NCBI GenBank assembly: GCA_017608305.1
Contig: JAFCGC010000001.1
Span: 38,744-102,743 of the forward strand
Length of the DNA: 64,000 bases
Source: Candidatus Pacearchaeota archaeon
GTDB taxonomy: Archaea; Nanobdellota; Nanobdellia; Pacearchaeales; GW2011-AR1
Direction: 5' to 3'
This document shows, piece after piece, positions 47,016 to 48,049 of this stretch. How positions within the stretch are numbered: position 1 is the stretch's first letter; each line of letters starts with the position of its first letter. The notes below the pieces were generated by a model that was given only the letters and a program-made list of their open reading frames with translations, was not told the origin of the DNA and searched no databases. The position numbers and the translations under genes were made by a program.

Positions 47016-47387
47016 ATGCCAATTGAAAAAATAAATAGTTTAGATGAATTGGGAAATGCTGTTGGAAAAAGGGTGGAAATAGTAGATTACCCAAAAGATC
47101 CTCGCTATGCTTTTCTAGAAACTTATGCGGGAAAAACCCCTGGGAGCCTGCATCTTTTTTTGACTCAAATTCCAGAAAAAGAAACAAGTTCAAACCTCTG
47201 CAATATTCAAGTAAGAGAAATTCCAGAAGAACAAATTGCCCCTTCTAATTCAGATGGAAAGATTATTTATCTCGGGATAAATTTTCACCAACCAAGAGAA
47301 ATGATTACAAGAATTTGTGTTCCTAGTGATTCAAGGTATGAAGGATTTATGTCTATTTTACTTAAGAATGAAGGAGGAAGTGATTAA
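47016..47387 (+). CDS. Small protein, tandem paralog 1 ('KINSLDEL' family)
   Basis: Begins 'MPIEKINSLDELGNAVGKRVEIV'. Likely true start is at 47016, not 46998. RBS 'gattaaaATG'. Confidence 0.4.
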   Translation: MPIEKINSLDELGNAVGKRVEIVDYPKDPRYAFLETYAGKTPGSLHLFLTQIPEKETSSNLCNIQVREIPEEQIAPSNSDGKIIYLGINFHQPREMITRICVPSDSRYEGFMSILLKNEGGSD

Positions 47388-47388
47388 A

Positions 47389-47676
47389 ATGTCATTTAAA
47401 ATAAAAAGTTTAGAAGAATTGCAGAGGATTACAGGGAATAAAGTGGGGCCAATTAAAGTGGTAATTCCTGAAACATATTCCGAAAAAGAAAAAATAGTTC
47501 ATTTAATTGGAACCGAGCTAGATGGAACATACAGTAAGAAATATTTATGTGTTAAAAAAGAAGAAGGGAATAAATTTAATGGAGAACTTATGCTATATGA
47601 CACTTCTTCAGGAGAGATTAATCCTCTCAGTCCTTCTGACCCTGAATTTAATCTAGTAATAGGAGGAAATAATTAA
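47389..47676 (+). CDS. Small protein, tandem paralog 2 ('KINSLDEL' family)
   Basis: Begins 'MSFKIKSLEELQRITGNKVGPIKVVIPE'. Preceded by 'GAAGGAGGAAGTGATTAAAATG'. Confidence 0.4.
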   Translation: MSFKIKSLEELQRITGNKVGPIKVVIPETYSEKEKIVHLIGTELDGTYSKKYLCVKKEEGNKFNGELMLYDTSSGEINPLSPSDPEFNLVIGGNN

Positions 47677-47677
47677 A

Positions 47678-48049
47678 ATGGTCGTTCAAAAAATAAATAG
47701 TTTAGATGAATTAGAAAAATCTATGGGAAGGAAAATTAGCTTAACAAAGGTCCATAATCCAAAAGGAATTCAGAACACAAAAACAGAACATTATATTTAT
47801 CTCGGAGTAACTAAGAAAGGGGTATCAGAAAAGTATTTATTCACAAGATGTTCTGATAAAAACCCATTAGGACGAGTGGTTCCAAACATAGAAAAACTTT
47901 TTTTAAAAAAAGGAGAAATTGGATTTACAGGAGATCTTATTACCTATGACCCTCTTTTTGCCCAAGTAGAGATGATAACTCCTTCTAATCCACAATATCC
48001 TAACCTAATAGGTAATTTAATTCGTATGGAAAGATTATCGTGGAGGTAA
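47678..48049 (+). CDS. Small protein, tandem paralog 3 ('KINSLDEL' family)
   Basis: Begins 'MVVQKINSLDELEKSMGRKISLTKV'. Preceded by 'AGGAGGAAATAATTAAAATG'. Confidence 0.4.
   Translation: MVVQKINSLDELEKSMGRKISLTKVHNPKGIQNTKTEHYIYLGVTKKGVSEKYLFTRCSDKNPLGRVVPNIEKLFLKKGEIGFTGDLITYDPLFAQVEMITPSNPQYPNLIGNLIRMERLSWR

Follow-up and report, generated by a model that had tools for sequence, protein, structure and literature searches.

The accessory partners described for ATP-binding cassette (ABC) systems of the MacB/FtsX type, which include the MacA adaptor and the EnvC, PcsB and RipC proteins that work with FtsEX, act on the extracytoplasmic domain and are equipped with signal peptides, membrane anchors or coiled coils, and LolCDE provides the example of a heterodimeric permease layout. 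Bacteriocins with a double-glycine leader (consensus LSxxELxxIxGG) are exported by peptidase-containing ABC transporters, and tandem arrays of divergent small immunity genes adjoin bacteriocin or toxin loci with ABC transporters. Here we describe three small co-directional open reading frames (ORFs), named A, B and C, in a 64,000-nt stretch of DNA from Candidatus Pacearchaeota archaeon (assembly GCA_017608305.1, contig JAFCGC010000001.1, positions 38,744-102,743 of the forward strand), which is called the window below and whose numbering is used for all positions unless another locus is named. Like the MacB/FtsX partners, A, B and C are encoded beside FtsX/MacB_PCD permeases, and the operon that holds them resembles LolCDE in having one ATPase and two paralogous permeases, FtsX1 and FtsX2. 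Unlike those partners, they have no signal peptide, anchor or coiled coil, are absent from most orthologous operons, and resemble nothing known in sequence or profile. We tentatively favour the explanation that A, B and C stem from a lineage-restricted accessory gene for a soluble cytoplasmic protein of about 120 amino acids (aa), which was amplified from one copy to three and is coupled to a MacB/LolCDE-like operon.

Three small genes upstream of FtsX1

The initial annotation had placed three consecutive ORFs at 47016-48049, and three same-strand ORFs were found exactly there (Table 1). The same three genes were called by an independent gene caller in the sister-strain contig L001 (A at the same coordinates), and A, B and C are real protein-coding genes. 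At all three junctions, i.e., from the upstream 106-aa gene to A, from A to B and from B to C, the sequence reads TAA-A-ATG with a 1-nt spacer, and the ribosome-binding site (RBS) of each of the three genes is embedded in the final codons of the preceding gene. A GGAGG element had been reported in front of each copy; all three do have an RBS of their own, which is GGAGG before B and before C and only GAGG before A. The 106-aa ORF ends in a stretch that resembles the A to B junction (aat gag gca att gat taa a ATG), and at the downstream end the FtsX1 ATG lies 5 nt past the stop codon of C, with the GGAGG of FtsX1 contained in the final codons of C (tgg agg taa). From this gene layout, expression of the three copies is probably coupled at translation to that of the operon. 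Scans for promoters and terminators, which used bacterial-type consensus patterns on the DNA of an archaeal host and therefore say little about it, showed no excess over shuffled sequence.

Pairwise alignment, the check named by the initial annotation for its view of A, B and C as three tandem paralogs, gave that view statistical support. BLASTP aligned B with C at E=5e-8 (110 columns, full length), A with C at E=1e-5 and A with B at E=0.005, and the corresponding z-scores against shuffled sequences were 12.3, 8.5 and 3.9. The similarity between B and C was retained (z=8.4) even after the N-terminal 22 residues were removed, and A without its first 22 residues showed no pairwise significance against B or C (shuffle z 1.0-1.5). 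Two other DPANN archaeal genomes (loci L002 and L005) have single-copy orthologs, P0004 and P0005. A hidden Markov model (HMM) built from these two foreign proteins only was run against the 307 ORFs of the window; C came out at 1e-18, A followed at 4.9e-5 and B at 0.009, and the next ORF was at 0.95. With an HMM built without A, residues 3-115 of A aligned as a single domain with 19.9 bits, and in a shuffle test of this leave-A-out model the segment 91-123 of A beat 3000 of 3000 shuffles and the segment 41-123 beat 2987 of 3000. Judged by these comparisons, A, B and C are true tandem paralogs, as had been proposed, and arose by a one-to-three amplification.

The N-terminal motif K-I-x-S-L-[DE]-E-L-x4-G-x-[KR]-[VI] occurs in A, B and C, in agreement with the common '(K/E)KINSLDEL' start given for them by the initial annotation. 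The C-terminal signature 'PS(N/D)P...NL(I/V)G' given alongside it holds for B and C and fails for A, which has PSDSRY instead. The leave-A-out alignment puts this PSDSRY on the PSNPxY motif of the family; the homologous C-terminal motif of A is VPSDSRYEGFMSIL (residues 102-115), and the element 'IAPSNSDG' (residues 82-89) had been wrongly taken for the homologous site. In addition, the C-terminal strings quoted for A and C had been interchanged: 'ITPSNPQYPNLIGN' belongs to C, and 'IAPSNSDGKIIYLGINF' is residues 82-98 of A. At the DNA level the 24 nt of the N-terminal motif region are 92-96% identical among A, B and C. Gene conversion at the conserved 5′ end was considered as the cause of this and was rejected, since the motif region is equally conserved in the DNA of the foreign orthologs, and the pattern thus reflects amino-acid constraint together with AT-rich codon bias.

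The three copies have not diverged to the same extent. In bit scores C reaches 62 and 57 against the two foreign orthologs, 33.5 against B and 27.7 against A. C is therefore nearer to the foreign orthologs than to its own neighbours, which marks it as the conserved copy, probably the 'parent', and A and B as accelerated duplicates. The same differences could mean that only C is functional, and that A and B are relaxed or pseudogenising copies whose frames happen to be open still. In the alignments, B is missing a stretch of about 26 internal residues and has no C-terminal helix, both being present in C and the orthologs; A is barely recognisable outside its N-terminus (z 0.8-2.2), and C scores far above A or B against the orthologs. 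Such decay of both copies seems to us improbable, given that A and B retain intact frames, start codons, RBSs and 1-nt junctions as well as the N-terminal motif and the P-S-[DN] turn, and that in an AT-rich genome of about 30% GC unconstrained frames of 95-123 codons would soon gain stops.

Table 1. Features of the operon in window coordinates. Core denotes the genes whose order recurs across loci; KD19, 19-residue Kyte-Doolittle mean; pI, isoelectric point.
Feature	Coordinates	Strand	Remarks
copy A	47016..47387	+	123 aa, pI 5.05; most diverged paralog; N-terminal motif KINSLDELGNAVGKRV; PSDSRY at residues 103-108
copy B	47389..47676	+	95 aa, pI 5.41; shortened paralog
copy C	47678..48049	+	123 aa, pI 9.61; nearest copy to the single-copy orthologs P0004 and P0005
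junction repeat copy 1	46999..47034	+	direct-repeat family D1; GAGG, TAA of the 106-aa gene, 1-nt spacer, ATG and first codons of A
junction repeat copy 2	47372..47407	+	repeat families D1, D3, D4; GGAGG in the end codons of A, then TAA-A-ATG of B
junction repeat copy 3	47661..47696	+	repeat families D1-D4; GGAGG in the end codons of B, then TAA-A-ATG of C
ABC ATPase (core)	44668..45426	+	ABC_tran 7.6e-34; start by gene caller 44686; 81% identical to the L002 ortholog
290-aa surface protein (core)	45509..46381	+	NPCBM_assoc 4.9e-6; maximum KD19 2.35; 63-64% identical to orthologs
107-aa orphan ORF	46378-46701	+	in the A/B/C slot; alone in its 90% cluster
106-aa orphan ORF	46694-47014	+	in the A/B/C slot; alone in its 90% cluster
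FtsX1, MacB-type permease (core)	48055..49275	+	MacB_PCD 1.9e-23, FtsX 6.3e-20; 68-71% identical to orthologs
slot 3 between the permease genes	49278..50695	+	358-aa ORF (49278-50354) and 114-aa ORF (50351-50695)
FtsX2, second MacB-type permease (core)	50692..51900	+	43% identical to FtsX1; 75-77% identical to orthologs

Distribution, cellular location and possible role of the family

A profile search across metagenomes, which had been suggested alongside the pairwise alignment, found the KINSLDEL family, as we label A, B, C and their relatives, in only three related DPANN genomes. Scanned in full with HMMER, 1.84 billion cluster representatives, which stand for about 15 billion proteins, yielded P0004 (119 aa, E 7e-6; annotated as 'hypothetical protein [Nanoarchaeota archaeon]') and P0005 (127 aa, E 3e-5). 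When 5.8 billion clusters were searched by word index, a three-sequence profile found A, B and C and nothing else, and a five-sequence profile brought no new members. The family consists of five members among the roughly 15 billion proteins. Seven residues (K5, L9, E11, L12, F83, P102 and S103 in the numbering of C) are common to all five proteins, whose consensus is K-I-N-S-L-D-E-L-x4-G-K-K-V ... P-S-N-P-x-Y ... E-R-x-S-x-R. Scans of the five members against Pfam, NCBIfam, PHROGs and PADLOC gave no match at or near a curated threshold, the best being Med15_C (E 0.25) and CcaA (E 0.048, 12 bits against a cut-off of 1300); the same scans of the unknown neighbours of A, B and C found nothing either. 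Viral relatives of the family were not found in IMG/VR or among GenBank phages, and the literature searched on MacB/FtsX/COG1361 systems of DPANN or other archaea contained no specific account. A sequence-profile search of the PDB gave nothing significant; its best hit and only near-match, Borrelia VspA (E 0.73, 'VKSIDELAKAIGKKIG'), was rejected as a chance N-terminal resemblance. KINSLDEL is, on these searches, a tiny orphan family restricted to a narrow clade of DPANN archaea. Such a clade-restricted family of hypothetical proteins with no assignable function is ordinary for DPANN genomes, and like other DPANN orphan families KINSLDEL is small, fast-evolving and without homologs beyond a narrow clade; it differs from the typical ones in being tied to one slot of a conserved operon and in having been amplified in tandem.

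Through the FtsX1 periplasmic domain, 49 metagenome loci with FtsX1 orthologs (L009-L057; 43-72% identity by tblastn on that domain) were fetched, and three further genome loci were fetched via the 290-aa protein encoded upstream of A, B and C. The core order ATPase - 290-aa surface protein - FtsX1 - FtsX2 recurs across loci. All five family members occupy the same slot, slot 2, which runs from the surface-protein gene to FtsX1; the genes for P0004 and P0005 are single-copy at this position, between a surface-protein gene of about 300 codons and FtsX1. The family is present in three genomes (that of the window with its sister strain, L002 and L005) and in none of the 49 metagenome loci, many of which are short and do not include slot 2. 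A neighbour-joining tree of FtsX1, which carries no support values, groups the window with L010 and L002, and L005 with L016, all in one larger clade. In L010, the nearest relative of the window by FtsX1 (75% identical), slot 2 is empty; within the same clade it is also empty in L017 and holds unrelated ORFs in L013, L016 and L020. The absence of the family from L010 and other members of the clade indicates that it is dispensable for the transporter and is not a required subunit, and the presence in most orthologous operons that would mark a core subunit was not observed. The family was probably present in the ancestor of the clade and was then repeatedly lost or replaced.

Where the family is retained, it has diverged far more than the genes around it. 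Among the three genomes, amino acid identity is 81% for the ATPase, 73-77% for FtsX2, 68-71% for FtsX1 and 63-68% for the 290-aa surface protein. C and its ortholog in L002 are 33% identical (E=8e-17), and C and its ortholog in L005 are 31% identical (E=7e-15). With 31-33% identity against 63-81% for the core, the family diverges far faster than its neighbours, and by this comparison of sequence identities its rate of evolution is two to three times that of the core genes.

The initial annotation had correctly located the three genes directly upstream of an FtsX permease (FtsX1 has matches to both MacB_PCD and FtsX; Table 1) and took this position to suggest exported or transporter-interacting modules. 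Export, or a role as substrate or partner of the extracytoplasmic FtsX domain, would fit the adjoining FtsX/MacB_PCD permease and an N-terminal L-x-E-L-x4-G that is loosely like a double-glycine leader. Hydropathy, however, revealed no hydrophobic N-terminus, and hence no signal peptide, and no membrane segment in any of the five members: the maximum 19-residue Kyte-Doolittle mean is 0.24-0.58 in A, B and C and at most 1.16 in the orthologs, compared with 2.35 in the membrane-anchored 290-aa neighbour. We infer that A, B and C stay in the cytoplasm. MacB-type machines pass ATP-driven motion to an extracytoplasmic domain, and the membrane in which they sit is not crossed by their substrates (PMC8277102), so that a cytoplasmic protein is unlikely to be either their substrate or a partner of their outer domain, and docking on the extracytoplasmic FtsX domain is poorly motivated. 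A partner of the MacA, EnvC or PcsB type was rejected for the same lack of an export signal and because the family has no HlyD, peptidase M23 or CHAP-type domains.

As in bacteriocin loci, the family has small tandem paralogs beside ABC genes, and an L-[DE]-E-L-x4-G is found near the N-terminus, some 10-17 residues in; unlike bacteriocins with such leaders, the proteins are about 120 aa long with bodies predicted to be beta-rich, and the transporter is of the MacB type. The would-be residues -2 and -1 of the five members are G-K, G-N, G-R, R-K and G-K, which means that the glycine at -2 is not invariant (it is Arg in P0004) and that position -1 is K, N or R and not G, A or S. Conservation also runs on beyond the would-be cleavage site, where K-K-V is retained, and a double-glycine leader was rejected. 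A peptidase-type exporter was rejected as well, there being no C39 peptidase (Peptidase_C39) among the Pfam matches listed for the ATPase (top match ABC_tran) and FtsX1 (MacB_PCD and FtsX only). On this evidence we regard export, or partnership with the outer FtsX domain, as very improbable. Descent of the family from part of the 290-aa protein or from part of the FtsX1 periplasmic domain was likewise rejected, since hhalign of the family against the 290-aa family and this domain gave probabilities of at most 0.1%.

Structure prediction gave AlphaFold models with a predicted local distance difference test (pLDDT) score of 41.3 from a three-sequence alignment and 49.2 from a five-sequence alignment, i.e., unreliable models. 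In both, at low confidence, S-L-D-E-L forms a short helix near the N-terminus, and several beta strands are followed by a helix at the C-terminus. On the strength of the N-terminal motif and this low-confidence secondary structure, an OB-like beta-barrel with flanking helices would be a speculative guess at the fold. The best Foldseek match to the PDB had E 1.3 and was obtained from a low-confidence model too poor to exclude a known fold.

Returning to the favoured explanation of a cytoplasmic accessory gene coupled to the operon, the only strongly constrained parts of the protein are the N-terminal motif, which is kept in five of five members and at the DNA level too, and PSNPxY. The constrained N-terminal helix-strand K-I-x-S-L-D-E-L-x4-G-K-K-V and the PSNPxY turn before the C-terminal helix could together form a docking element, whose partner would be a conserved cytoplasmic protein, most plausibly the co-expressed ATPase/FtsX1 on its cytoplasmic side. 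The body of the protein, which is variable and beta-rich and has isoelectric points between 5.0 and 9.6 in the paralogs, would then have a lineage-specific modulatory or adaptor role. We put this docking mechanism forward as a possibility that is itself rather doubtful; were it true, no cytoplasmic accessory factor of an archaeal MacB-type system would have been described before this family. The broader suggestion of a transporter-interacting role gains from the retention of the FtsX1-side slot in three genomes and is weakened by the dispensability of the family, and it may or may not be right.

Several observations weigh against the accessory-gene explanation or against parts of it. The helix-strand description is low-confidence secondary structure, from models with pLDDT of 41 and 49. 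The sister strain L001 has no single-nucleotide polymorphisms (SNPs) in A, B and C, in a region with 19 SNPs in 13.8 kb, and is uninformative as a signal of selection. The conserved slot may reflect shared ancestry alone and not a link to the transporter, and B may be decaying. Finally, the other slot families described below include multi-helix-turn-helix (multi-HTH) DNA-binding proteins, which are atypical as transporter parts and sit in slot 2 or slot 3.

Gene turnover between the core genes

The three gaps between the core genes hold from zero to five small, same-strand, tightly packed ORFs, which differ from genome to genome, including related ones. In total, 76 slot ORFs from about 50 loci fell into 43 clusters, 31 of them singletons, and only four slot families recur: the multi-HTH family, a family named here 'HExxH' after its motif, KINSLDEL with its five members, and an unannotated family, also of five members, typified by a 170-aa ORF of L005. 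hhalign of the KINSLDEL family against the 71 other slot ORFs gave probabilities of at most 1.3%, and hmmsearch with the --max option over all ORFs of the 57 loci revealed no hidden relatives of A, B and C. The gaps look like a hotspot of gene turnover inside the operon. In a conserved, housekeeping-adjacent ABC operon, small translationally coupled ORFs can be inserted, lost, duplicated and replaced at a rapid pace, and this hypervariable slot architecture is a more notable by-product of the analysis than the A/B/C family itself; the slots offer a tractable place to study the birth and fixation of small genes in streamlined archaeal genomes.

Turnover of this kind bears on a competing explanation, in which the slot ORFs, A, B and C included, are pure hitchhikers, new or acquired small genes that are unrelated to the transporter and fare best when inserted between genes of a constitutively transcribed operon in a promoter-poor, streamlined genome. 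The division of 76 ORFs among 43 unrelated clusters, the empty slots in many orthologous operons, among them L010 as the nearest by FtsX1, and the presence of the multi-HTH family in either of two slots speak for it, and so do the tandem paralogs in slot 2 of L038, which are lipoproteins, and the persistence of the 290-aa gene without any ABC genes in L006 and L007. Against it speak the absence of PADLOC and PHROGs matches, of viral relatives and, in Pfam scans of the operon products of the window, of any toxin family. The KINSLDEL family has also kept one slot, next to FtsX1 or nearly so, in three genomes although FtsX1 itself has diverged to about 70% identity among them. We consider hitchhiking the main alternative, though an unlikely one. 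Perhaps hitchhikers would have a role elsewhere, in conflict and immunity or in the interaction of an episymbiont with its host, which would explain rapid divergence, patchiness and tandem amplification. In layout only, A, B and C do resemble tandem immunity arrays, as small, soluble, diverging paralogs beside ABC genes that are patchy among close relatives. They differ from such arrays in that Pfam scans of the operon products of the window matched no toxin or bacteriocin family, the defence and phage libraries (PADLOC and PHROGs) gave no match, and the neighbours of the operon, rpoN and ribosomal-protein genes, are housekeeping genes.

A more ambitious reading would make the slots a previously undescribed hotspot of gene birth and turnover and KINSLDEL one of several interchangeable cytoplasmic adaptors, each of which docks by a conserved N-terminus, diversifies in its body and serves to retune a mechanotransmission ABC machine together with the Ig-like surface protein, e.g., for attachment of the episymbiont to different hosts, the triplication being an adaptive expansion of specificities. 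We regard this as a long shot.

The other recurrent families show what else the slots can hold. The multi-HTH family has 10 members with matches to HTH_3, HTH_23, HTH_7 and HTH_38 (up to E 1e-13) and lies in slot 2 or slot 3, as at L002 10366-11160, L019 731-1204, L022 2407-3024, L026 1883-2440 and L035 8083-8637. An operon of this kind is an odd site for a DNA-binding protein, and the family may be the remnant of a mobile gene. The 'HExxH' family counts nine members, including the 114-aa ORF of the window; its proteins (100-138 aa) are encoded between the FtsX genes and share the signature 'HExxH..KA.ELGY ... aP.nPS..D'. It was found at 50351-50695 in the window and at L010 8088-8465, L016 7726-8067, L019 2421-2783, L024 1940-2356, L052 8088-8474 and L002 12377-12679, and the HExxH motif itself has degenerated and is gone in the 114-aa copy of the window and in L002. 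With no Pfam match and about five clusters among the 5.8 billion, this family may be a mini metallopeptidase. Homology of its 'aP.nPS..D' to the PSNPxY of the KINSLDEL family was considered and rejected (hhalign probability 0.2%). In L038, the tandem paralogs of slot 2 (5918-6262 and 6558-6776) both start like a lipoprotein (MKKSLSLICAGLLSAGCGK...), are identical at about 60 residues and have a 100-aa ORF between them.

Neighbouring genes and strain variation

The core of the operon is an ordinary MacB/LolCDE-like ABC system. In the window its genes follow in the order ABC ATPase, 290-aa protein, 107-aa ORF, 106-aa ORF, A, B, C, FtsX1, 358-aa ORF, 114-aa ORF and FtsX2; rpoN adjoins the locus at one end, and L21e, DUF655, S13, S4, S11, rpoD, L13 and S9 at the other. 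The 290-aa protein has a signal peptide, an Ig-like (NPCBM_assoc) domain, an acidic loop, a C-terminal membrane anchor and a basic tail. The 107- and 106-aa ORFs that precede A are basic (pI 9.1 and 9.8); in the comparisons made they matched neither each other nor A, B and C, their hhalign probability against the family alignment was at most 0.4%, and clustering by BLASTP and phmmer left them unpaired with any other protein of the operon. The 358-aa ORF has a weak likeness to cysteine synthases dependent on pyridoxal phosphate (PALP E 0.022; PDB 5b55 E 0.0017 over residues 139-229), and BLASTP found no counterpart of it in the L002 or L005 operons.

Simpler arrangements of the locus were observed in relatives that are more distant. 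In two Woesearchaeota loci (L006 6001-6867 and L007 3752-4615) the 290-aa gene stands alone between rpoN and L21e with no ABC genes, and in a Pacearchaeota locus (L008 5151-8030) the order is ATPase, 290-aa gene and a single FtsX, with no small ORFs. Since the 290-aa gene is kept without the ABC genes, the surface protein is the older resident and the two-permease operon a later elaboration.

The sister-strain contig L001 is 99.86% identical to the window from position 44238 on, the 19 SNPs in 13.8 kb mentioned above, and is rearranged upstream of that position. Its first 118 nt (L001 1-118) correspond to window 42706-42823, which overlaps a tRNA-Leu gene (42676-42761), and L001 139-283 matches window 43235-43090 in inverted orientation at 86% identity. 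Window 42706-44237 and L001 1-589 thus represent strain-level structural variation beside a tRNA gene.

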